A stretch of DNA of 32,000 bases from Polynucleobacter wuianus (GTDB lineage: Bacteria > Pseudomonadota > Gammaproteobacteria > Burkholderiales > Burkholderiaceae). The notes under the pieces are model-generated. The model was not told where the DNA came from, made no database searches, and was given only the letters and a program-made list of their open reading frames with translations. The stretch lies in contig NZ_CP015922.1 in NCBI RefSeq assembly GCF_001659725.1, positions 1,978,163 to 2,010,162 of the forward strand, in the 5' to 3' direction. Below are positions 4,758 through 31,394 of the stretch, piece by piece; position 1 is the stretch's first letter; each line of letters opens with the position of its first letter. The position numbers and the translations under genes were made by a program.

Positions 4758-4781
4758 AGCGTAGATTATTTTTACGCTTAA
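4758..4781 (+). repeat. Candidate recombinase core site 'c': AGCGTAGATTATTTTTACGCTTAA
   Basis: Inverted repeat of site a (22/24) and direct repeat of site d (22/24). It starts 8 nt after the stop of ORF 3911-4750. Confidence 0.6.
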
Positions 4782-6818: not shown

Positions 6819-8033
6819 CTAAGCCAATTTCTCGGCGCTCATCATTGCGGTTAGCTTGCTATAGTGGCGCTCTATCATCACAACGCTTGTCCCCATCTGC
6901 TTCGCTAATGTGTGTATATCAATCCCATCAGCCAGCGCCAAAGTAGCGTAGGTATGTCGCAGGCTGTATAGCGTTCTATTTTGCCCACCAGCATCTTTCA
7001 TCAGCCCACTCTTTTTCATTAAGTTTCTAAAGATGTTTTCCATCAGATGTGGCATTTCGCCAGACTGAAGCGTAAAGACTCTTCTGTCCAGTTTTGCTTG
7101 GATTAGCTCGTTTAAGTCCATAAAGGGCAACTTGTGCCACCGCATTAACTCCTCCAAAACCTCTAAAACAGCGTTTTTAGCGATTAAATACCTTGCGCCT
7201 GTCTTGCCACTTACCCATATACGCAAATACCTCTTAGAGCCTATAAAGTGCCACTGTAAGTGTTTCCATCGCAAAGGCATTGACTCAGTGCTGTGTCTTA
7301 CGCCCGTATTAACCAAAAACTTTACATAAGCACAACAGAGGTAGCGTATTTCTGTAGATTGTTTATGCCACACATCTATCTGCCACTTAGGCATATAGGC
7401 ATACATCTGCTCCAACTCCTCTACCGTAAAAGCTGGGCGTGATTTGCCACGCTCCCCCGTAATATCTAACGGCACAATCATTTTGTTAAGTGGAATATAG
7501 CCTCTCGCCTTTGCCAGCGTCATCACTCTGTTGTAAGCCATTGCGTGATGCTTCTTTGTCATCTGCTTGGCATTCTTACCCATCTCCGCCAATCTCCAAG
7601 CCTCAAAGTCAGCTACTTCCTCGTCATCAATCTTTGCGACATCAAAGTTGCCAAAAAATGGGATTAAATACTTTTCTAAAATGAACAAATAGTCTTTGTA
7701 TTTGCGCTCAGTGCGTGGCGTTGTTGCCGTCCTCGCCATTCTGGTAATTTCTTCTCTTGCTAACTGCTTGAAACTTCTTGTAGAAGTAGCCAATCCAGCC
7801 TCTGTTCTAATTTTGACTGTCTCGTAGATGGAGATAGCCTGCTGTTTAGCCTGCGCCAAGTCTTCAGTTCCCGTTGAGGCTGAGTGCCACTTCCCATTAA
7901 CCAACTTGAAACGACAGTGCCACTGATGGGTATTAGGGCGCCTAAACACAGTAATTCTGCTATCAAGCAACTTCACTGCTTTAGGAGCGTAAATTATTTT
8001 TACGCTTGAAAATAACTGATTTAGATTTGACAT
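6819..8033 (-). CDS. int: Tyrosine integrase (P4-like, island-type), integrase 1
   Basis: GVRHSTE (Arg I), LRHTYATLAL (H-x-x-R), and the IERHYSKL tyrosine. It is a paralog of 9825-11096 (shared QWxxRF..KWH..STG, IWVSGKTG, LAKQMGTSV). The start is set at ATG 8033; the ORF track begins at an upstream TTG. It lies next to a tRNA fragment. Confidence 0.9.
   Translation of the reverse strand: MSNLNQLFSSVKIIYAPKAVKLLDSRITVFRRPNTHQWHCRFKLVNGKWHSASTGTEDLAQAKQQAISIYETVKIRTEAGLATSTRSFKQLAREEITRMARTATTPRTERKYKDYLFILEKYLIPFFGNFDVAKIDDEEVADFEAWRLAEMGKNAKQMTKKHHAMAYNRVMTLAKARGYIPLNKMIVPLDITGERGKSRPAFTVEELEQMYAYMPKWQIDVWHKQSTEIRYLCCAYVKFLVNTGVRHSTESMPLRWKHLQWHFIGSKRYLRIWVSGKTGARYLIAKNAVLEVLEELMRWHKLPFMDLNELIQAKLDRRVFTLQSGEMPHLMENIFRNLMKKSGLMKDAGGQNRTLYSLRHTYATLALADGIDIHTLAKQMGTSVVMIERHYSKLTAMMSAEKLA
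7986..8009 (+). repeat. Candidate recombinase core site 'd': AGCGTAAATTATTTTTACGCTTGA, inside the integrase 5' coding region
   Basis: A 22/24 direct repeat of site c with the same GCGT-N11-ACGC geometry. It overlaps roughly codons 9-16 of integrase 1. Confidence 0.55.
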
Positions 8034-8232
8034 TACAAACAACCCTTAAGCGTTGCTTGCTATTGTGTTTTCAGTTTTAGATTTGGGCTACCGCTTTTGT
8101 AATACCCTGTGAATGCCACCCGCTTGCGGGGTGAAGCTACAAATTGCCGTGTAGCGTGGTGTTTATTGAGCACCAAAATAGAGCTATGCTTAAAACAATG
8201 TTTAAGCACTGTTTTGACACGGACACTGTGCT

Positions 8233-8271
8233 TTATGATTCCGTCGCTCTAACCAGCTGAGCTAATTCGCC
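8233..8271 (-). pseudogene. 5' half of a tRNA(CAU) gene (Met or Ile2), truncated after the anticodon loop; copy 1
   Basis: The minus strand reads GGCGAAT-TA-GCTC-AGCTGGTTA-GAGC-G-ACGGA-ATCATAA (acceptor, D-arm, anticodon stem and loop). It is then followed by AGCACA rather than TCCGT, and no T-arm or 3' acceptor follows. It is part of the 48-bp direct repeat 8227-8274 = 31282-31329. Confidence 0.75.
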
Positions 8272-8388
8272 GAACTCGCTATTTTAGCGTAATTTAGCCT
8301 AGAGAGCTATTTCGAGCCGCCTAAATCCTTCTTCTCTTAAAAAACGGTGTTTTTACGGTAAATCTACGGTACACACCTTGTTTACAGA

Positions 8389-8408
8389 ATTTGTCGTTTT
8401 AAACGACA
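8389..8408. repeat. Palindrome P1 (TGTCGTTTTAAACGACA) and left 19-bp direct repeat of the mini-element
   Basis: ATTTGTCGTTTTAAACGAC at 8389-8407 is identical to 11099-11117. Confidence 0.75.
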
Positions 8409-8411
8409 TAT

Positions 8412-8840
8412 TTAGGAAGCGGCGATTTTTGTTTTATCTTCAGACTTGTACTGGGTTCCGCATTGCTCACAAGATTTGAGGCTATTTCTCCAAATGGGCC
8501 CTTGCTGCTCAGATCCGCATTTTTGGCAAACCAACTTCCAGCCCTTTGTAATGCTTTTAATTTTGTACTTGGCAAAAATTAATAGATTGGCAACCAATGA
8601 AGACTGCTGGACATGCTCATATGAACCCCATGGGGAACTAATCTGCCCTCCATTTTTATTTTGATTAATCCAATAATTTCTAGTCAATTTACTAGTGTCA
8701 TCTGACTCTTGAGCAAGAATATTTGTGGAATAAATTATTGTGTATTCCTTATTCGCATCCTCAAGTTCAATTTCCAAGTCTTTATTGCTTAGGTATTGTT
8801 CAACCTGCTTTCTAATTGCTTCCGAATTTTCAGTACTCAT
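8412..8840 (-). CDS. Hypothetical zinc-ribbon protein (142 aa)
   Basis: Two CxxC pairs (CQKCG ... CEQCG) near the C-terminus. Its ATG overlaps the TGA of the upstream exonuclease gene (ATGA). Confidence 0.55.
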   Translation of the reverse strand: MSTENSEAIRKQVEQYLSNKDLEIELEDANKEYTIIYSTNILAQESDDTSKLTRNYWINQNKNGGQISSPWGSYEHVQQSSLVANLLIFAKYKIKSITKGWKLVCQKCGSEQQGPIWRNSLKSCEQCGTQYKSEDKTKIAAS

Positions 8841-9730
8841 TCGCCAATCCCACACATTCTTATAAAGTCATTTTCGGTAAGAATTTCAATATTAACCCCT
8901 TCGGCAATCAACTCCTCTGCCTTTCTTTGCTTAGTACTCTTATCATGCCCAGCTAAAGTGGAAAGATCTTGAATTCCCACGACCAGATAATCAGTTTTCT
9001 TTGTGACGCCTGAGCCAATCTTGAACCCAAACTGACTGGCATGTGTTGCGGCACCATCCCTAGTCATTGTCACAAGAGCACCCGTGAAAACAATTATCTT
9101 GCCAAAAAACATTCCCTCTTCTTTTGGGCGATAGTCAGATGCCTTAAAGCCATGATGAAAGGGGTGTGGATTTTCTATCTGAAACTGAATGCCTTTCAGC
9201 AAAACTTCTTTGGTTATTAAACAGTCAGCAATGGCGCGATGTGCGCCCTCAATAGAAATATTAAGTTCCTGCGCAACAGTTGCTAATTTGTGATTAGTTA
9301 GATTCGGAAATGTCCTTTTTGCCAAGGCCAGAACATCTTTTAAAGGACGATGCTCTTCAGTGTGAACATTTAAAAACTTGCTATCAAAGCCTGCGTTATA
9401 TGCCCATATCTGTAAATCGCCAGCAAACTGAAAGAATGCTTCTACCGCCTCTGGATTGCTAGGTGCACCCTCAAGCATTTCATCCGTAATGCCAGTTAAC
9501 TCAACAATAAATGGATCAAGCCTGTCAGGCTCAACATCTTCTTCATCGAACTCTTCATCCTCATCACCAAAGTATGTATAGACATCATCGGGCTTTGTGA
9601 AAGTCTGAAATTGATCTATTACTTCACCAGTATCAAGATCTACTTTAATTGCACCAATTTCAATAATTTGATCGCTACCACCATCTAAACCAGTAGTTTC
9701 TAGATCAACGATGATTGCGAGATTTCCCAT
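8837..9730 (-). CDS. DnaQ-like DEDDh 3'-5' exonuclease fused to a C-terminal BRCT domain
   Basis: Exo I IVDLETTGL, Exo II NAGFDSKFL, Exo III HRAIADC. The BRCT-like region is KIIVFTGAL..MTRDGA..GFKIGSGVTKKTDYLVVG. Confidence 0.85.
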   Translation of the reverse strand: MGNLAIIVDLETTGLDGGSDQIIEIGAIKVDLDTGEVIDQFQTFTKPDDVYTYFGDEDEEFDEEDVEPDRLDPFIVELTGITDEMLEGAPSNPEAVEAFFQFAGDLQIWAYNAGFDSKFLNVHTEEHRPLKDVLALAKRTFPNLTNHKLATVAQELNISIEGAHRAIADCLITKEVLLKGIQFQIENPHPFHHGFKASDYRPKEEGMFFGKIIVFTGALVTMTRDGAATHASQFGFKIGSGVTKKTDYLVVGIQDLSTLAGHDKSTKQRKAEELIAEGVNIEILTENDFIRMCGIGE

Positions 9731-9824
9731 GTGACAACTTTACTATAGGGATAAGAAAAAATTAAAACTTATCTTGCCCAACCCTGCACACCGAAATTAA
9801 GCTATGTTTTTCAGCTAGAGAAAC

Positions 9825-11096
9825 ATGCCCAAAGAAACAGAAGTGCTTGCCCTTTTCTTTCAAAGCACCTCTACCCCTGAAAAATCACCCCAACTTAAAT
9901 ATCTAGAAAACCTAGCTACTGGCAAGCTAGTACACATGAGGGATGGCAACATTACCCTCTATAAGCGAGAGCGCAGTAAGCAATGGCAAATGCGCTTTCG
10001 GCTTTATGACAAGAAGTGGCACAGAGTTAGTACTGGCTATGAGGATCTGGAATACGCCAAGAAGAAAGCTGGCGATATATATGACAGAGCCCGCTTTATG
10101 GAAGAGCTGGGATTGCCACCACTTAATAAGCGATTTGACTCTGCAGCTGAGGCTACAAAAGTAGAGTTACAGAGTGATTTAGATAATGGCGTTGGTAAAA
10201 AAATCTATGTAGATTACATATCCGTTATAGATAACTATCTAACCCCATTCTTTGGCAAAAAGCATTTAACCAATATCAACCATCAAGATATTGCTGAGTA
10301 TGAAGTTTGGCGAGCAGAAAAGATGAAACGCAAACTCATGCACTCAACCATGATGACCCACTTCTCCGCTTACAACAGGGTATTTGATCTAGCAATTAAA
10401 AGAGGCTGGCTTAGTGACAAACACCCAGTTCCAAGGTTAGGCACTAAAGGTGAAAAGAGCACTCCGAGACCTGCCTTCACTAGAAAAGAAATTGACTACT
10501 TACTGGAGTTCTTAAAAACATGGAGTCAAGGTGGCAAAACCCAAGAAGCTCACCTTGGCAGACTATTACTACGAGATTACATAGAAATACTAATGGCGAC
10601 AGGCATGAGACATGGAACAGAAGCATTCAATATCCAATGGCGACACCTAGAGTGGCATACAGATAAGAGTGTTCGATACCTGCGAATATGGGTAAGCGGT
10701 AAAACAGGTCCACGCTGGCTGATTGCAAGACATGAAGCGGTTCCCGTCATCGAACGCTTAAAAAGCCGGTTTACCGAATGGGATCATTTAACCCTCGACC
10801 AATTACTAGAAGAAAAGAGTGATGAGTTCTTGTGGCGACATCCCAATGGGGAGCGTCCTTATGACTTTGTCAGTAGCTTTAAGTGGCTCATGAAGGACTC
10901 AGGCTTATTGCTATCAACTACGGGGGCTAAACGCACTATGTACAGCTTTAGACACACATACGCTACGTTTAGCTTAGTGGAATGGGGCATGGATATACAT
11001 ACGCTAGCCAAACAGATGGGCACTTCCGTACAAATGCTAGAGCGGTTCTATAGCAAGCTCACCGCTACGCTTGCTGCAGAAAAGTTGGCAGGATAA
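9825..11096 (+). CDS. int: Tyrosine integrase, integrase 2 (paralog of integrase 1)
   Basis: GMRHGTE, FRHTYATF, LERFYSKL, and IWVSGKTGPRWLIA shared with integrase 1. The stop lies 2 nt before the right 19-bp direct repeat. Confidence 0.9.
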   Translation: MPKETEVLALFFQSTSTPEKSPQLKYLENLATGKLVHMRDGNITLYKRERSKQWQMRFRLYDKKWHRVSTGYEDLEYAKKKAGDIYDRARFMEELGLPPLNKRFDSAAEATKVELQSDLDNGVGKKIYVDYISVIDNYLTPFFGKKHLTNINHQDIAEYEVWRAEKMKRKLMHSTMMTHFSAYNRVFDLAIKRGWLSDKHPVPRLGTKGEKSTPRPAFTRKEIDYLLEFLKTWSQGGKTQEAHLGRLLLRDYIEILMATGMRHGTEAFNIQWRHLEWHTDKSVRYLRIWVSGKTGPRWLIARHEAVPVIERLKSRFTEWDHLTLDQLLEEKSDEFLWRHPNGERPYDFVSSFKWLMKDSGLLLSTTGAKRTMYSFRHTYATFSLVEWGMDIHTLAKQMGTSVQMLERFYSKLTATLAAEKLAG

Positions 11097-11098
11097 AT

Positions 11099-11117
11099 AT
11101 TTGTCGTTTTAAACGAC
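11099..11117. repeat. Palindrome P2 and right 19-bp direct repeat of the mini-element
   Basis: ATTTGTCGTTTTAAACGAC, identical to 8389-8407. Confidence 0.75.
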
Positions 11118-11549
11118 TCGCACATGAATAAATGCAATGAACGCAAAGAAACTAAAAACTACCTCGGTTGATTCCAAGCTGCCTGCACAAGTTAGATTTG
11201 AGCAAAGCCTACAAAATGCCATTCATTGTCAGGAGTCCATCTTAAGCATTGGATATTTGCAATACTTAGCTGAATATAAAACCCATAACCCCATTAGTCA
11301 TTCACGCATCACCTACAAAGTGATCCATAGAAATACAGGATGCTCTGTACTCATCAAATTAACCAGGGTTTTAAATGCTGGCTCAGGACTACGCAAACGC
11401 CAAAGAATCAACAGAACTACAAAACGAATATCAGTGAAATGGATGCCAAGACTCAAGACGAGGTATTGATTTACGCATTACCTGTCAGCCAGACAATTTG
11501 TCAACCTATTAAAAGAGTAATCACCAGATCAAACCGCGATTTTGAATCG

Positions 11550-11945
11550 TTATAGCGGTTTGGGCGTTTCGCCTCTTAAGTAGTCCCGAAACATTTTTAA
11601 CTCTTGCGGCGATTTATTAGTAATAGTGGGTCCTGTTGTAGCCGGCGACTTAGGTTGCAAAGGCGCAATCGTTTTAGCTTGAGCAACGGGCTTAGCTACT
11701 TTTTGCTGTGCAGCCTGTACTGGCCTAGCAACCGGGACAGGTATTGCTCTTTGCGGCAAACTCACCGCCTTGGGTTTAGGTGTCTTTGGGGCTTTGGGTG
11801 TCTTACTCTTGGGCTTACTGGCTTGCGCCGCCTTTTGTTTAGCCTGTGTGCTAGCTTGTTGGCTAATGGCACTCCAGGTGTTATTCATAATGACTCGCAA
11901 TAATCCTAGCTGATCTTCTGCATTGGCAATCTCATACACTCTCAT
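11550..11945 (-). CDS. Hypothetical protein with a Pro/Ala/Lys-rich low-complexity region (131 aa)
   Basis: Long ORF with a structured-looking N-terminus followed by KPKSKTPKAPKTPKPK-type repeats. No family recognised. Confidence 0.5.
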   Translation of the reverse strand: MRVYEIANAEDQLGLLRVIMNNTWSAISQQASTQAKQKAAQASKPKSKTPKAPKTPKPKAVSLPQRAIPVPVARPVQAAQQKVAKPVAQAKTIAPLQPKSPATTGPTITNKSPQELKMFRDYLRGETPKPL

Positions 11946-11973
11946 GGCCTTCTCCTTTCCTTATATTTATCGA

Positions 11974-11994
11974 ATCGTCTAGGATTTAGACGAT
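11974..11994 (-). repeat. Hairpin H1 (ATCGTCTA-GGATT-TAGACGAT)
   Basis: Same CGTCTA...TAGACG arms as 16872-16896 and 25785-25801. The loop is the reverse complement of the H2 loop. Confidence 0.5.
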
Positions 11995-11996
11995 CC

Positions 11997-12149
11997 CCAC
12001 CTAAACTTCTGTCGGCAAATGCACCACATTGTTTGCACCATACTGCCCTTGCAATAGGAAATAAGCGGCTTGACTGTTATCTGCAACTACTTGAGTTTGT
12101 ACTACCCAGCCTTGGGGCTGTATGCGTACATAGGCTACATATGTTTTCA
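11997..12149 (-). CDS. Possible small ORF (50 aa, MKTYVAYVRIQPQGW...)
   Basis: My own translation; the ORF is too short to appear in the track. The Shine-Dalgarno sequence is weak. Confidence 0.3.
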
Positions 12150-12206
12150 TCTAATCTATCCATAGAAGAAGCACTAATACTATGATCAGTATTAGTGCTT
12201 GGCTGT

Positions 12207-12644
12207 TCACTTACCAAACCCAGCACGTACAGCGCCGCTAGCTTGCTCTATTTGGGTGTCTAACTCTCCCGCCTCCACCGCACCCTTAATGATCTCTAAG
12301 GCTTTGATAAGCTCATCTGCAGTAGCAACTTCAACAGCCGTTTTGCCTTTTGCAAACTAAATTACGCGACTTCCATAGCGCACGTTTAAACAAACCTTGC
12401 CGTCACTAGACACAAACCACCACTGACGTACACGCTTTTGATGCTCTACGGTTTTACGTGACCCGTCATAGTCTTTAACTGATTTAAATTTCTTAACAGT
12501 AAAAGTACTGCCTTCACGCTGGGCTTTAGCTAACTGGATCTGCTCCCATACTTTTGTAGAGAGCTTATTGCGTCGCTGCAAAATGGGTGGAATAGACGTT
12601 GGCTTTTTGGAATTAACCATTTTCAAACTGTTTAATGTGCTCAT
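12207..12644 (-). pseudogene. Conserved hypothetical gene interrupted by a single in-frame TAG (95 aa + stop + 49 aa)
   Basis: After the TAG at 12357-12359 the same frame stays open for 49 more codons: FAKGKTAVEVATADELIKALEIIKGAVEAGELDTQIEQASGAVRAGFGK, then stop. Confidence 0.55.
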
Positions 12645-12789
12645 TTCATTTCTCCTTTGTAGTTAATGGGCACACTTAATTTATGGTCAGAGTTTTTGGT
12701 TGGACAACCTCTTTTTGCCAATATCTGCCAGAACCAAAGGATTTACGCCAGATCTACTCTTCTTTTATTAGGTTTTGCTAAATACTTTC

Positions 12790-13173
12790 ATGAACTACAA
12801 GAAGAAACGATTAACTGACGCACAATTTAAGATTAATAACGATCAAAAATATGACTCGAAAATCACTGATAACTTCTTAAGGGAGTGCGGACTAAACCCG
12901 CAAACCTTTACAATCATGGCAAAAGAGTTAGTTCAGGCTCGCTTAGCGGCAGTGGATTTACTCAAAAATTACTCAAATCTTTTAAACAAACATCAAACCA
13001 AGGCACTCAATAAATTCAAAGGCAAAACAGCTAACAAAAAGAAATGCAATCAACTTAGCCCTACTTTGGCTTATCCAATACTCAATCTAGCTACCAAAAT
13101 CAAAAGACAGGCTCATAAACAAGAAGTGCAAGCAAGGCAAACTATTCAGGAACTAAGGTACAACCAACCTTAA
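12790..13173 (+). CDS. Hypothetical basic protein (about 127 aa)
   Basis: ORF only. The ATG at 12790 is preferred over the upstream TTG. No motif recognised. Confidence 0.4.
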   Translation: MNYKKKRLTDAQFKINNDQKYDSKITDNFLRECGLNPQTFTIMAKELVQARLAAVDLLKNYSNLLNKHQTKALNKFKGKTANKKKCNQLSPTLAYPILNLATKIKRQAHKQEVQARQTIQELRYNQP

Positions 13174-13445
13174 CAAACAGGTACAAACGCGGGTTGTAAT
13201 ACGTCGGCTAATGAGCCCGCACTTGGCATAACTGCTCTAAAGGTTATGCGCTACAAGTAGGCCGCAGGATTCCTAGGTTTTCTAGGTTTGAAGTTTTAAT
13301 TCATCTGTCTTCAATAAATCTTTTTAGAGTCGTGTTGCTGGGGAATACTTAGTACCAATCTACACGTAGCGGCGGCTATAGTACTTTTATAGTGCTATAG
13401 CCGTCGTTTGACAGAAGAATCTATTGCCCAATCAGCTAAAAGACA

Positions 13446-13496
13446 AAATGTGTGAGCGAAAGCGAAACACAGGACGAATGCAGTTCGTCCTTATAT
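13446..13496 (+). repeat. Conserved non-coding 'L' element, copy B
   Basis: See 301-360: same sequence blocks in the same order, hairpin GGACGAA-TGCAG-TTCGTCC. Confidence 0.6.
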
Positions 13497-13678
13497 GTGC
13501 CCTAGCAATATGGGGTATAGAAGCAAAATCACCACCCTGAATCTGTAAGTACTTCATATAAATTTTCCGCAGCTCTATTTTTACAGGGCACAGGACCCAT
13601 TCGGATATCAAATCATTCGTTTAAACAGCGATCTACTTCACTCGCATACATGGGTAGTCGAGTGCTAAATATATGTGC

Positions 13679-13693
13679 TTATACGAAGGATTT
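13679..13693 (-). repeat. 15-nt motif copy B (TTATACGAAGGATTT, the reverse complement of 916-930)
   Basis: Exact inverted match to the cassette A leader. Confidence 0.6.
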
Positions 13694-13714
13694 AGCCGTG
13701 GCATTTAAGCCACG

Positions 13715-13746
13715 AAATGTAATAGAAGTATGAAACTATTACATTT
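13715..13746. other. Perfect 11-bp-stem hairpin AAATGTAATAG-N10-CTATTACATTT in the recombinase B leader
   Basis: Read directly from the sequence. A positionally equivalent hairpin with a different sequence, ATAAGAA-N10-TTCTTAT, lies at 1039-1062 in copy A. Confidence 0.55.
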
Positions 13747-13859
13747 AGAGCTAAGTCATTGATTAATGGAAAGATCTTTGTAGGCAGATTTCGGTTGCTC
13801 AAACCAAACCTAAGAAAACATACTGTAGTTGCTTATTTATTACATTTTGGGAGCTACAT

Positions 13860-14426
13860 ATGTCACAAGCAAAAACATTAAACACAACAGAACTACGCAG
13901 AGTGCTAGATCACATCGCTACACGCAAGCATTCAGCCCGCAATCGATGTGCCCTGCTTTTAACCCATTACGCTGGAATGCGTGTCGGAGAAGTTGCAGCA
14001 CTTCGCATTTGCGACGTTTTAAACGACAGCGGAACGATTAAAGATGAAATCCGCTTAAAGCCAGAGCAAACCAAGGGCAAATACGCTAGAACTGTATATA
14101 TCAATGCCCGTATGCAAAAAGAGATAGTCCAGTACATCAAACTAATCCGCATTACAGATACCAATAAGCCTTTGTTCTACACCCAAAAACGAGCTGGGTT
14201 TTCAGCAAACACACTTACGCAGTACTTTCACTTCCTATATAGACGTGCGGGACTTGAAGGTTGCAGCTCTCATTCAGGAAGAAGGTCATTCCTAACTTCG
14301 TTGGCAAATAAAGGCACAGCCATACATATATTGAAATCCTTGGCAGGCCATCGCAATATTAGTACGACCGCTGGATATTTGTACTCCAGCCCAGACCAAA
14401 TGAAGGCCGCCGTAGAGCTAGTTTAA
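13860..14426 (+). CDS. Small (188 aa) catalytic-domain-only tyrosine recombinase (cassette B)
   Basis: GMRVGEVAALR, HSGRRSF, LAGH, TTAGYLY. It is a paralog of 1187-1753. Its 3' end overlaps the convergent gene 14418-15200 by 9 nt. Confidence 0.85.
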   Translation: MSQAKTLNTTELRRVLDHIATRKHSARNRCALLLTHYAGMRVGEVAALRICDVLNDSGTIKDEIRLKPEQTKGKYARTVYINARMQKEIVQYIKLIRITDTNKPLFYTQKRAGFSANTLTQYFHFLYRRAGLEGCSSHSGRRSFLTSLANKGTAIHILKSLAGHRNISTTAGYLYSSPDQMKAAVELV

Positions 14427-15200
14427 TAACTCTCTTGCTTCTGGAAGATAGTCGCTAGTGTCCGGAAATCTGCCAACAGTTGCATTAGCGATTAACTTTT
14501 TTGTATTTTCTAGGTTATACATCAGCGCACCATGCAACTTAGATCTATCGGCATCTGTCACTCTATTTGTTATCTCAGGACTACCCAATAGCCCATGCTT
14601 TTGAGCAAACTGATATGCAATAAAACCTTCTTTGACTGATTCTTTTTGATAATCAGAATAAATTTCAAGGTCCCTTTTGATAACTTCGTAACCAAACTTT
14701 TGCCCCAGTTGGAATATTTTTGCATTGGCAGTAGTGTTATCAAAGATGCTAAATTTTCTACGCTCCTGGTAGGCTTCTTGCATCCTCAAGATTTCATCAA
14801 ACTGTCTTCTCAATATTTTTATATCCAAGTGCAACGGCACTTCAAGCAGAAGTATTGGCGGCTCATTCGGGTCTTTAGCCTGTTTAAATTTGTAGTCCAA
14901 ATCCACTGGCTTAATTTCAGTAAAAGGAATTCTCTCCTTGAAAATTTTGTAGCCCGTAGCTTTCCACCACTTCTCAAAAGTCAGATTACTCAGATCGCCA
15001 AATAACTTGCAAGTATCAGCAATTGCCTGATTCTTAAACTCTCTAGTCTTCTGAGCTTCAGCATACCAAGGCGATGCTTTAAGCACATCAAACCATGACT
15101 CATATATAGAGTGCTTGGCTTTAGAAGCCGATACCTCAAGGCTAAAGCCGTAGATGTCATCTTCTACTGGAAAGCCTTTATAAAAATGCAACTCGTCCAT
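14418..15200 (-). CDS. Conserved cassette protein of unknown function (260 aa), paralog of 3911-4750
   Basis: Shared LKASPWYAEA and ATVGRFP blocks. It is divergent from the 263-aa gene. Confidence 0.7.
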   Translation of the reverse strand: MDELHFYKGFPVEDDIYGFSLEVSASKAKHSIYESWFDVLKASPWYAEAQKTREFKNQAIADTCKLFGDLSNLTFEKWWKATGYKIFKERIPFTEIKPVDLDYKFKQAKDPNEPPILLLEVPLHLDIKILRRQFDEILRMQEAYQERRKFSIFDNTTANAKIFQLGQKFGYEVIKRDLEIYSDYQKESVKEGFIAYQFAQKHGLLGSPEITNRVTDADRSKLHGALMYNLENTKKLIANATVGRFPDTSDYLPEARELLN

Positions 15201-15339
15201 ACATTCCTTCAGAAAAAGCTCTTCGAGGCGAATTCTTAAGTCGATCTTCTCGACCGAACCCCACTTTTCAAACGAAAATTTTTCTATCGCGAATAAGCAA
15301 ATTTATTCGTGATTTTTTCTTAACTTAAAGGAGCATACC

Positions 15340-29893: not shown

Positions 29894-29904
29894 CTGATCT
29901 TCCA

Positions 29905-30005
29905 TGTCGTTTTAAACGACACTCTATTACACACTCACCAAAATAAGCACTACACCCTAGTATTGCCTGGGAAAATTATTAGTGCGATCTATTACTACTC
30001 CGAGA
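29905..30005 (+). repeat. Composite junction repeat: palindrome P4 (TGTCGTTTTAAACGACA) + spacer + X3 core (TTAGTGCGATCTATTACTACTCCGAGA)
   Basis: Collinear with 25857-25954. P4 is at 29905-29921 and X3 at 29979-30005. Confidence 0.65.
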
Positions 30006-31089: not shown

Positions 31090-31110
31090 GATGTCGTTTT
31101 GAACGACATC
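31090..31110. repeat. Palindrome P5 (GATGTCGTT-TTG-AACGACATC)
   Basis: Same family as P1-P4, with 9-bp arms. Confidence 0.65.
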
Positions 31111-31287
31111 TTCCATCCACCACCCTCCGATAGAAGCCATATGCTAGAAGGGTTTTTGCCAGCGGAGCCTTATTCTTCGGCACTTTGCGGGTGGTGTGTC
31201 ACACGGTGTGTGCTACGGTGAAAACCTTGGTTTTCTAAGTGCTTGATTTTATTGGGAAAAGGGTTGAAAACCTCAGAACCTTGTGCT

Positions 31288-31326
31288 TTATGATTCCGTC
31301 GCTCTAACCAGCTGAGCTAATTCGCC
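31288..31326 (-). pseudogene. 5' half of a tRNA(CAU) gene, copy 2
   Basis: Identical to 8233-8271. The 48-bp repeat here is 31282-31329. No T-arm or 3' acceptor lies downstream. Confidence 0.75.
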
Positions 31327-31394
31327 GAAGGTGTGATTGTAGCAAATCCGCCCCATTCTGTAACGGCTCAGCCTAGAAACCGTAATATAGATAC

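Follow-up and report, generated by a model that had tools for sequence, protein, structure and literature searches.

The analyzed segment (positions 8389-11117) belongs to a window of 32,000 nucleotides, i.e., the whole stretch of Polynucleobacter wuianus DNA under study. The segment begins and ends with exact copies of a 19-bp sequence, ATTTGTCGTTTTAAACGAC, and contains three genes encoding a tyrosine integrase (Int2), an exonuclease with a BRCT domain and a zinc-ribbon protein (ZnR). It is part of a 23-kb island, designated island B (8275-31329), adjoined in tandem by a related 11-kb island A that ends at position 8274. The features of the locus are as follows:

8227..8274, no strand assigned: att repeat where islands A and B meet; it represents the 5' half of tRNA-Met(CAU) in minus-strand reading, with 48 bp identical to 31282-31329
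8275..8388, no strand assigned: left att arm of island B, 114 bp, ending at the first 19-mer
8389..8407, plus strand: first copy of the 19-mer, the arm copy of a palindromic site (pal, described below), on the left att arm of island B
8412..8840, minus strand: zinc-ribbon partner protein ZnR, 142 aa, CxxC pairs C105/C108 and C124/C127
8837..9730, minus strand: 297-aa DnaQ-like 3'-5' exonuclease of the DEDDh type, BRCT domain at the C-terminus; Pfam RNase_T, E 1e-30
9731..9824, no strand assigned: divergent promoter region and inner edge of the cargo slot; homology to the cargo-only relatives L042-44 stops at 9757 and homology to G066 and L090 (int2 promoter) restarts at about 9760-9774
9825..11096, plus strand: Int2, tyrosine integrase of island B, 423 aa; Pfam Phage_integrase and a SAM-like domain; phrog_1, E 1e-32
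11099..11117, plus strand: second copy of the 19-mer, pal behind int2, starting 2 nt after the Int2 stop; the same placement was found in G066 and L083
25393..25407, no strand assigned: pal copy at a cargo-module junction of island B
29906..29920, no strand assigned: pal copy at a cargo-module junction of island B
31093..31107, no strand assigned: right-arm pal of island B; the distance to the right att repeat is about 180 bp
31282..31329, no strand assigned: right att repeat of island B (5' half of tRNA-Met); the chromosomal flank starts at 31330

The initial annotation had described the composition of this segment accurately. The 19-mers are exact direct repeats (chance expectation 0.01) in non-random positions, at module junctions, and the second one starts at 11099, 2 nt past the TAA stop codon of Int2 (11094-11096). 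The genes between them are those of Int2, the DEDDh exonuclease-BRCT protein and the 142-aa protein with two CxxC pairs, and the exonuclease stop codon and the ZnR start codon share an ATGA overlap, as had been noted.

Insertion of island B at tRNA-Met(CAU)

The 5' half of the tRNA-Met gene is present three times, and repeats of 42-48 bp delimit islands A and B. The intact gene is located at -3074..-2998 in window coordinates, about 3 kb upstream of the window start. No tRNA or Rfam feature was detected in the region 8200-8280 using ARAGORN and Rfam, and the half-gene was identified by its match to intact tRNA-Met: 42 bp of the repeat at 8227..8274 match exactly, or 62 bp when counted from 8233. 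The shared extensions of the tRNA-half repeats are 62, 48 and 42 bp, a pattern expected of a tandem attL, hybrid and attR. In addition, an empty tRNA-Met site was found in five relatives (G022, G086, G089, G054 and G094), in which the tRNA is joined within 4-5 nt to the right flank (matching 31330 onward) and pal is absent. Because of this repeat pattern and the empty sites, genome comparison was taken to show that island B was integrated by a tyrosine-integrase crossover inside the 42-bp stretch of the tRNA gene.

Int2 is the sole large integrase of island B and is 40% identical to Int1. Its orthologues in G066, L046, L083 and L090 (92-95% identity) all adjoin the tRNA-Met arm, and Int2 is syntenic with the island backbone in relatives; in G066, an identity of 93% continues unbroken across the second 19-mer. 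The backbone of island B encodes a small recombinase of 188 aa, an AAA+ protein resembling clamp loaders and two further proteins of unknown function. Insertion at a tRNA gene, partial-tRNA direct repeats and empty sites in relatives are features of tycheposon-like islands, and so are the att-proximal tyrosine recombinase and the tandem arrays and remnants found here: Int1 and Int2 abut the shared att repeat, and att remnants of tRNA-Phe occur in arrays of relatives.

The cargo slot and the mobility of the three genes

The left att arm is conserved in five further loci, namely G066 and L090 (about 95% identity), G104 (82%), L083 and L046, and the homology ends at the palindrome. Across these six loci, the sequence to the left of the arm pal is conserved, and that to the right falls into four unrelated classes. 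The slot that extends from the arm pal to the int2 promoter carries unrelated cargo in G066, G104 and L090. In G066, int2, pal and the backbone are retained at 93% identity and four other genes fill the slot; in L090, a different cargo of 0.95 kb was found. The slot cargo has pal on either side in both of these relatives, which would be explained by module exchange at pal; their inner copy is located 74 bp upstream of the int2 start, where pal is absent in the window. In G104, the arm and its pal are present, the cargo is different and the integrase is absent. The nuclease pair was found without Int2 at L042-44, where it adjoins a tRNA-Phe half-gene and is 92.7% identical to exactly 8412-9757. 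The pal-bracketed three-gene arrangement occurs again in strain MWH-Aus1W21 (80% nucleotide identity, collinear with the flanks) and, in part, in L046; it is therefore a stable, possibly exchangeable block. G016 was considered as a precise empty site of this unit and rejected, as its boundary lacks pal and the homology begins within the next gene.

These comparisons bear on the main proposal of the initial annotation, namely that the segment is an autonomous 2.7-kb mini integrative element with the 19-mers as attL and attR and Int2 as its private integrase. The exactness of the direct repeats, the position of the integrase flush with one of them, the second occurrence of the bracketed block in MWH-Aus1W21 and the recurrence of pal-bracketed integrases in other islands agree with it. 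However, about 100 other junctions carry the site without an integrase, the G066 homology crosses the second repeat into the backbone, and the cargo and Int2 each occur without the other (L042-44 versus G066 and L090), so the three genes do not behave as one moving unit. The island, moreover, is bounded by tRNA halves and has no large integrase besides Int2, whose orthologues always adjoin the tRNA-Met arm. An empty site with a single 19-mer was searched for and none was found. Since the empty sites join tRNA-Met straight to the right flank, a self-contained 2.7-kb element is not supported, the real boundaries being the tRNA-Met half-gene repeats; the proposal is largely refuted and can be considered highly improbable. 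A search for the three genes together elsewhere found them in MWH-Aus1W21, where the block is collinear with its flanks, and partly in L046.

The palindromic site at module junctions and att arms

The 19-mer is one member of a family-specific, polar palindromic site of 17-21 bp with the form (T/A)(T/A)T-GTCGTTTWAAACGAC-AT. Its 15-bp palindromic core was also found at 14013, 25393, 29906 and 31093 (1-2 mismatches allowed). Thus, the 19-mers cannot be regarded as element-specific ends: the site occurs at four more places in the window, and it is found between other cargo modules as well as on each att arm. The initial annotation had named a dispersed repeat unrelated to the element boundaries as its refutation. 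The site does recur, with seven copies in the genome (at most one mismatch; 6/7 in island B) and clustered copies in 35 of the 101 genus genomes, but it marks module junctions and att arms.

A total of 101 distinct pal sites gave a polar consensus, and about 100 distinct sites were counted in 18 related loci. The sites are intergenic in 83% of cases versus 18% for random positions, and ends of homology blocks within 15 bp of pal are seven times commoner than for random positions. The orientation of pal is uniform within arrays and its geometry is 7-1-7 or 5-7-5. In islands A and B, each att arm bears a pal, some 120-220 bp away from the core, and its sequence is island-specific, with island A carrying a different palindrome at the same positions. 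The att remnants are built as pal, tRNA fragment, pal. Whole modules bounded by pal are common to one tRNA-Met array and one tRNA-Phe array, and G021 and G023 differ by a shuffled module order with pal at each junction. Taken together, comparative analysis of the loci showed pal to be a repeated mark of module junctions and of the two att arms.

The integrase gene is often accompanied by the site. It lies between two pal copies in the related islands G066, G019, G083 and G055 and in strain MWH-Aus1W21, and a related palindrome was found 6-13 nt 3' of the stop codon in 10/30 genus integrase loci. A role of pal as a terminator was ruled out, since its stem is AT-rich, its centre is 1 nt and a T-run is absent; true GC-rich terminators come after pal in G019, G083 and G008. 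No clean correlation was found between pal type and large-integrase lineage. An association with the small-recombinase lineage was suggestive and was rejected because of arrays in genomes without that lineage. The complete genome G104 contains about 10 pal copies and neither island recombinase.

Copies within the small recombinase gene (14013) and within one AAA+ gene were rejected as functional sites; they are probably a coding coincidence because they are restricted to near-identical orthologues. A pal copy encoding CRFKRH within clade-X integrases is conserved in at least four integrases. The search of viral contigs revealed two chance matches to pal and nothing else. A likeness of pal to the tRNA-Met core (about 13/19 positions by eye) was judged not meaningful.

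All these characteristics allow us to assume that 8389-11117 is probably the integrase-bearing, tRNA-proximal end of the modular 23-kb island B, one of two tandem islands, and that it combines a portable nuclease operon with pal sites. Reading from the att repeat, the 114-bp arm with its pal is followed by a cargo slot, by the int2 promoter with int2 and by the second pal. The slot is here filled by the 1.35-kb exonuclease-BRCT operon with its obligate zinc-ribbon partner. In this scheme, pal would be a putative protein-binding site used in recombination, at which cargo modules may be inserted or exchanged. Several observations count against this reading. The recurrence of pal-bracketed integrases leaves room for a mobile integrase module, the pal-bracketed three-gene block recurs in MWH-Aus1W21 and in part in L046, the pal type does not track the large-integrase lineage, and G104 has pal without the island recombinases.

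It was also considered that pal may be a protein-binding site where no crossover takes place, i.e., an arm or accessory site of the att complex or the global operator of an island regulator. Modules would then end at pal because the copies at operon ends provide short patches of identity for occasional homologous recombination. The position of pal on both arms of both islands, with its spacing from the core and its island-specific sequence, is consistent with such a role, as are its copies just 3' of the int stop codons, distinct from the true terminators, those close to the promoters or 5' ends of int genes, and the existence of one pal-array genome without an island recombinase. On the other hand, G066 and L090 both have a pal at either end of the cargo in this one slot, complete pal-to-pal modules occur in arrays with differing att cores, the modules of G021 and G023 are shuffled with pal at every junction, and strict arm-site specificity predicts a tracking of the large-integrase lineage that was not seen. 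We consider a binding role without crossover to be possible but rather unlikely. Global operator sets are represented by the KorB operators of RK2 and the stoperators of cluster A mycobacteriophages. Like pal, each of these sets is a short sequence repeated many times over an element, consistently oriented, at promoters and at the ends of operons; unlike them, pal flanks att cores, coincides with homology breakpoints and persists in arrays without island regulator genes.

A more far-reaching possibility, which we put forward tentatively and regard as doubtful, is that pal could be the crossover site of a genus-wide cassette-capture system in tRNA-anchored islands. A dedicated recombinase, perhaps the catalytic-domain-only one of 188 aa, would insert, excise and shuffle multi-gene modules; the nuclease/ZnR operon would be one cassette, and the integrase would itself be a module between pal copies, open to exchange and decisive for which tRNA is targeted. 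If true, such a system would be integron-like in function, with unrelated sites and enzymes. Integron cassette arrays and the pdif (XerC/D) modules of Acinetobacter plasmids have a conserved, short site of the recombination type between their gene modules. In those systems, as here, the site has a fixed orientation and separates modules that are shuffled between hosts. However, the modules described here are multi-gene, of mixed orientation and presumably have their own promoters. Identity with integrons was ruled out: pal is a perfect palindrome of 15-17 bp and not an attC site of 57-141 bp, the GTTRRRY core is absent, and integron-integrase models gave a best E value of 3.5e-5, far under the cut-offs, with no IntI-type integrase. 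Xer/dif (pdif) sites were also excluded, as pal does not have the 28-bp 11-6-11 structure, differs in sequence and is uniformly instead of alternately oriented.

A further account would treat pal-(cargo)-int2-pal as an integration module that is swapped between island backbones: recombination of one pal with another would move it, and the recipient backbone would then be directed to tRNA-Met. Two kinds of integrase are found on B-lineage backbones, namely Int2 at tRNA-Met and a clade 46% identical to it at tRNA-Phe, and MWH-Aus1W21 has both; the integrase-module homology between G008 and G019 stops at pal on either side; and islands vary in where the integrase lies with respect to the backbone and in which direction it points. 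Nevertheless, the homology of the window with G066 and with MWH-Aus1W21 extends beyond the second pal, no pal was found at which one and the same backbone occurs in two versions, one having the module and one lacking it, and the G016 boundary has no pal. The swapping of such a module therefore appears unlikely.

In ICE/CIME accretion, known from the Streptococcus ICESt1/ICESt3 family, integrase-less att-flanked modules pile up next to an element that has an integrase, in a tandem array at a single tRNA-linked site. Tandem integrase-less modules are a shared trait, but most junctions here are a short pal without the full att core, and, unlike CIMEs, pal-ended modules sit in arrays with different tRNA cores. 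Few freshwater bacterial genera are as abundant as Polynucleobacter, whose genomes are small and whose ecological differences reside mostly in flexible islands. The presence of pal at nearly all cargo junctions and on both att arms offers a testable handle on the assembly and shuffling of these islands, and pal could serve as a simple sequence marker for the limits of cargo modules in genomes and metagenomes.

Among the closest described systems are the tycheposons of Prochlorococcus (10.1101/2020.12.28.424599) and the additive flexible genomic islands of Methylophilaceae (PMC10872708), which are tyrosine-recombinase elements at tRNA genes of streamlined aquatic bacteria. They share with the islands studied here the insertion into tRNA genes including tRNA-Met, partial tRNA repeats, tandem arrays with degraded remnants, and adaptive or defence cargo. 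Unlike in those elements, the 5' half of the tRNA gene serves here as att repeat, and a polar palindrome recurs at the junctions of modules and on each att arm; a search of both papers by term revealed no mention of palindromes or of a pal-like site. By description, tycheposons are further set apart by primase/helicase modules (10.1101/2020.12.28.424599), as opposed to a small recombinase and a clamp-loader-like AAA+ backbone. On the basis of these sequence features, the islands are classified as tycheposon-like, with the palindromic junction site as a variant feature.

The exonuclease-BRCT and zinc-ribbon pair

The exonuclease has the DEDDh residues D9, E11, D116, H164 and D169, and none of them varies among 18 homologues. 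The BRCT match is weak in Pfam (E 0.0023, under the gathering score) and is backed by PDB matches to the BRCT domains of RFC1 (2k6g, E 4.5e-5) and LigA (E 1e-4); BRCT hits were recorded for most of the homologues. The protein resembles mycobacterial DnaQ (Rv3711c), PRK06195 and phrog_192, all being DEDDh proofreading-type proteins of about 300 aa with a C-terminal BRCT domain. It matched phrog_192 over the full length (E 2.7e-46) and scored 103 bits against NCBIfam PRK06195, below the curated cut-off of 373. Mycobacterial DnaQ has a C-terminal beta-clamp-binding motif (10.1101/2023.10.24.563508); no QxxLF-type or Q[Y/L]ALF-type clamp-binding motif was seen by eye in the C-terminus of the exonuclease (...FIRMCGIGE). 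Unlike Rv3711c and PRK06195, the exonuclease is found on mobile elements and has a family-specific zinc-ribbon subunit as its partner, either as a separate protein or by fusion.

The 15 close homologues of ZnR are each encoded directly after the exonuclease with a 4-nt overlap, and one natural exonuclease-ZnR fusion protein (P0141) was found. The ZnR family is small, with merely 35 clusters among 1.84 billion proteins; it was absent from the plasmid and phage collections, and no significant fold match was found in PDB and BFVD. No defined anti-phage system was matched by the pair using PADLOC: ZnR gave nothing, and the exonuclease gave generic DEDDh and PDC-S48 N-terminal-domain hits. Judging by this conservation, the two genes are one genuine conserved unit, a separate portable operon of 1.35 kb carried by mobile elements. 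The domains and gene context suggest that the products may form a two-subunit 3'-5' DNA exonuclease for nicked or 5'-phosphorylated DNA, which would serve the DNA transactions of the element or defence; it would represent a compact, previously uncharacterised predicted nuclease. The pair also occurs without Int2 and beside unrelated integrases. At least five unrelated integrative elements carry it, at their integrase or att end, and it is thus a reasonable candidate for an element life-cycle function or a defence module.

The tRNA-Met site and its tandem islands

The initial annotation correctly reported an exact 19-bp sequence, ATTTGTCGTTTTAAACGAC, at both 8389–8407 and 11099–11117 (expectation from shuffles: 0.01), with the second copy beginning 2 nt past the stop codon of the integrase gene int2. 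Both are B-type copies of a short polar palindromic site, hereafter pal. Three genes are located between them, two of which, encoding the exonuclease and the zinc-ribbon protein ZnR, are joined by an ATGA overlap.

Genes between the two 19-bp copies
8412–8840, minus strand: ZnR, 142 aa, with two CxxC pairs
8837–9730, minus strand: DEDDh exonuclease, 297 aa, Pfam RNase_T (E 1e-30), with a C-terminal BRCT domain
9825–11096, plus strand: Int2, tyrosine integrase, 423 aa

The exonuclease residues D9, E11, D116, H164 and D169 are invariant. The Pfam match of the BRCT domain is weak (E 0.0023) and is backed by the BRCT domains of RFC1 and LigA in the PDB, as well as by the recorded matches of homologues.

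The genome is a single contig of 2.23 Mb with 45% G+C, and close homologues carry the name Polynucleobacter. Some 3 kb to the left of the window is an intact tRNA-Met(CAU) gene, the 5' half of which is found again at 8233 and 31288. By exact extension, the gene has 62 bp in common with the first copy and 42 bp with the second, and the two fragments have 48 bp in common (8227–8274 and 31282–31329). This is the pattern that two related elements, whose integrases Int1 and Int2 are 40% identical, would be expected to leave on integrating in tandem: attL, a hybrid site and attR.

Tandem islands at tRNA-Met(CAU)
Island A, tRNA-Met gene to 8274: small recombinase, AAA+ protein, HpaII-type restriction-modification pair, Int1 (6819–8042)
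Island B, 8275–31329: the three genes, the same kind of backbone as in island A, copper-resistance genes, an autotransporter and a two-component system

Empty sites were found in five genomes of the genus (G022, G086, G089, G054 and G094). In these, the tRNA-Met half is followed within 4–5 nt by sequence matching 31330 onward, and no palindrome was found between the half and the right flank. All 34 kb are thus inserted DNA, and the palindrome belongs to the island.

The integrase end in related genomes

The 114-bp arm left of the first 19-bp copy is kept in five other loci, namely those of G066 and G104, the contigs L090 and L046, and L083 (Polynucleobacter sp. MWH-Aus1W21, CP061287.1). To the right of this copy, the compared loci have four unrelated continuations. 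In G066, the arm and pal precede a 3.7-kb set of four unrelated genes; a degenerate pal then lies 74 bp before int2, whose product is an Int2 orthologue (94%), and a further pal leads into the backbone. L090 contains tRNA-Met, the arm and pal, followed by a different cargo of 0.95 kb; after a perfect pal come the int2 promoter and Int2 (92.5%). In G104, the arm and pal lead into a 27-kb array of other modules with pal between them, and no homologue of the large or small island recombinase was found anywhere in this complete genome. The array adjoins tRNA-Met and includes about 10 pal-delimited modules with transporters, sulfatase-like genes and ParA-like genes.

The segment had been read as a self-contained mini integrative element flanked by direct repeats. 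The observed repeats, genes and their placement hold, and that reading is borne out in part. The segment is not self-contained: the 93% identity between G066 and the window over 9774–15245 passes unbroken through the second 19-bp copy into the backbone. Nor do the three genes move as one unit, since Int2 occurs with other cargo in G066 and L090, and the cargo occurs without Int2 in contigs L042–44. There, a tRNA-Phe 5' half is 170 bp away from the two cargo genes (92.7% identity to exactly 8412–9757), and neither pal nor Int2 is present. The three-gene block itself recurs in MWH-Aus1W21 and L046, in the window order of arm, pal, ZnR, exonuclease and Int2 (80–81% nucleotide identity). In MWH-Aus1W21, the second pal is 6 nt past the int2 stop codon, and the region is collinear with the flanking backbone.

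This comparison indicates that Int2 belongs with the island and its tRNA-Met arm, and that cargo is housed between the arm pal and the promoter of int2, in a slot for which the nuclease pair (exonuclease-BRCT and ZnR) is one of several alternative fillings. The window lacks the inner pal of the slot, and so the next pal, after int2, seemed to be the partner repeat. The segment is the end of a modular tRNA-Met island that bears the integrase and cargo. Its 19-bp repeats represent the junction site of the island, and the nuclease pair forms a portable operon in its own right. New in this analysis are the B-type site and how it is distributed across the genus, the slot for cargo, the empty sites and the unity of the nuclease pair.

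Two large integrases of different clades are present in the MWH-Aus1W21 island: the tRNA-Met end has the Int2 orthologue, and a clade-X integrase is found on the other side of the backbone. This may reflect fusion or retargeting of the island.

Like tycheposons and additive flexible islands, the Polynucleobacter islands are tRNA-anchored, tyrosine-recombinase-driven, tandem and cargo-rich, and they also resemble the products of ICE/CIME accretion. What sets them apart is an att site formed by a tRNA 5' half, a different backbone and a polar palindrome repeated along the island. A term search of two tycheposon papers (10.1101/2020.12.28.424599, Prochlorococcus; PMC10872708, Methylophilaceae) revealed no mention of a palindrome.

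Distribution and possible role of the palindromic site

The 15-bp core GTCGTTTWAAACGAC occurs seven times in the genome at no more than one mismatch, including six copies in the window (8393, 11103, 14013 within a gene, 25393, 29906 and 31093). The seventh, at 2212514, is located 205 bp downstream of tRNA-Phe, on the border of another flexible region; this region and the final module of the G021 array are 97% identical. The 18-bp sequence TTTGTCGTTTWAAACGAC was found in 35 of 101 genomes of the genus, nearly always clustered (2–8 copies within 5–30 kb) in a single orientation. The consensus of 101 distinct sites from 18 loci, (T/A)(T/A)T-GTCGTTT-W-AAACGAC-A-T, is polar: position -2 is T in 58% and A in 32%, while mirror position +16 is T in 62% and A in 7%. 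Sites are intergenic in 83% of cases versus 18% for random positions. The presence of pal accompanies the Int1/Int2 integrase family (counts 27, 8, 21 and 45; odds ratio 7.2, the significance being inflated by kinship among genomes). No correspondence was found between palindrome type and large-integrase lineage.

Three identifications were rejected: an integron attC and a Xer dif site, whose defining features are absent, and a phage motif, as 2.9 million viral contigs gave just two chance matches.

In island B, copies of pal are located roughly 120 bp inward of the left att repeat (8393) and roughly 180 bp inward of the right one (31093). The equivalent positions in island A are taken by a different palindrome, AGCGTAnATTnTTTTTACGCT, with one copy some 165 bp from the tRNA gene and the other, at 7986, some 220 bp from the common repeat; a further copy is at 4758. 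This presence on both att arms, at arm-type-like distances and with an island-specific sequence, would suit a site that is only bound. So would the related palindrome that 10 of 30 integrase loci have 6–13 nt past the stop codon of int (a real terminator, where present, is separate from it), the same palindrome near the int start in four loci, and pal arrays that occur without island recombinases. However, 9.9% of homology-block ends fall within 15 bp of pal, compared with 1.4% of random positions, and this enrichment supports recombination. In addition, two genomes have a complete 4.3-kb module (Kup and a two-component pair) with pal at either end, which belongs to a tRNA-Met array in one genome and to a tRNA-Phe array in the other; module order is rearranged between G021 and G023 with pal at each junction; the int2-slot cargo has pal on both sides in G066 and L090; and an integrase module common to G008 and G019 has a palindrome at both ends. 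That pal is itself a crossover site is the likeliest single reading, though at less than even odds; a binding role alone is less likely, and the remaining probability goes to pal being both or neither.

The tRNA-Phe arrays of relatives contain 390–450-bp units of pal, tRNA-Phe 3' half and pal (L012 12243–12646; L014 7201–7602 and 19055–19422; L013 13582–14047), which are att remnants with one pal per arm. A second palindrome of related design, GTCCTTTWAAAGGAC, lies about 30 bp inside the B-type pal in these units, and this same variant is found after the stop codon of int in both G019 and G083. The 100 bp right of the 29906 pal (29904–30004) recur beside pal in G104 and G066 (75–79% identity, five copies in total) and are a conserved module-end sequence.

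In one integrase clade (L063 of G016, L067 of G095, L065 of G055, and L083 position 1219; 80–97% mutual identity), a perfect pal lies within the coding sequence of the N-terminal arm-binding domain and reads TGT CGT TTT AAA CGA CAT (CRFKRH). In G055, this pal and one past the stop codon enclose nearly the whole integrase gene. Island A has a counterpart of the int2 segment: two direct copies of its own palindrome (4758–4778 and 7986–8006) surround the HpaII-type methylase, the endonuclease and Int1, and the endonuclease stop codon abuts that of int1. The restriction-modification pair is thus placed as if inserted between int1 and its 3' palindrome.

The exonuclease-BRCT and zinc-ribbon pair

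ZnR has 15 close homologue clusters, and in every context read its gene directly follows the exonuclease-BRCT gene with a 4-nt overlap. An exhaustive profile search of 1.84 billion proteins yielded just 35 clusters. One of these, the metagenome protein P0141 (452 aa), naturally joins exonuclease-BRCT (residues 1–290) and the ZnR domain (315–449) in a single chain. The overlapping adjacency and this fusion indicate that the two proteins work together as a unit. The AlphaFold model of ZnR (pLDDT 82.5) gave nothing significant in the PDB or BFVD.

At least five different integrative elements have the pair at their integrase or att end. These include the Int2 islands, one element in which a P4-like integrase occurs with a Mob_Pre relaxase, two PriCT_2/AAA_25 primase elements whose integrases differ, and one with a 302-aa integrase, in which the pair lies beside HIT and NOV_C genes. 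Farther exonuclease-BRCT homologues (62–69% identity) lack ZnR and are likewise located in small integrative elements.

The nearest relatives of the exonuclease are PolC/DnaQ proofreading domains, and those of the BRCT domain are the DNA-binding BRCT domains of RFC1 and LigA. The pair is predicted to be a 3'-5' exonuclease for nicked or 5'-phosphorylated DNA with a zinc-ribbon subunit. A characterised protein of exonuclease-BRCT architecture, mycobacterial DnaQ, is an alternative proofreader bound to the beta-clamp (10.1101/2023.10.24.563508); the window exonuclease scores below the curated family threshold and has no evident clamp motif. For the pair, PADLOC returned only generic DEDDh matches. 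It might serve the element's own DNA; a place as defence or counter-defence cargo is conceivable, with somewhat lower probability.

A 120–121-aa ORF without a family match lies beside exonuclease-BRCT homologues in several unrelated contexts (L042/L043, L085, L086 and L087) and may be a second recurrent partner of exonuclease-BRCT.
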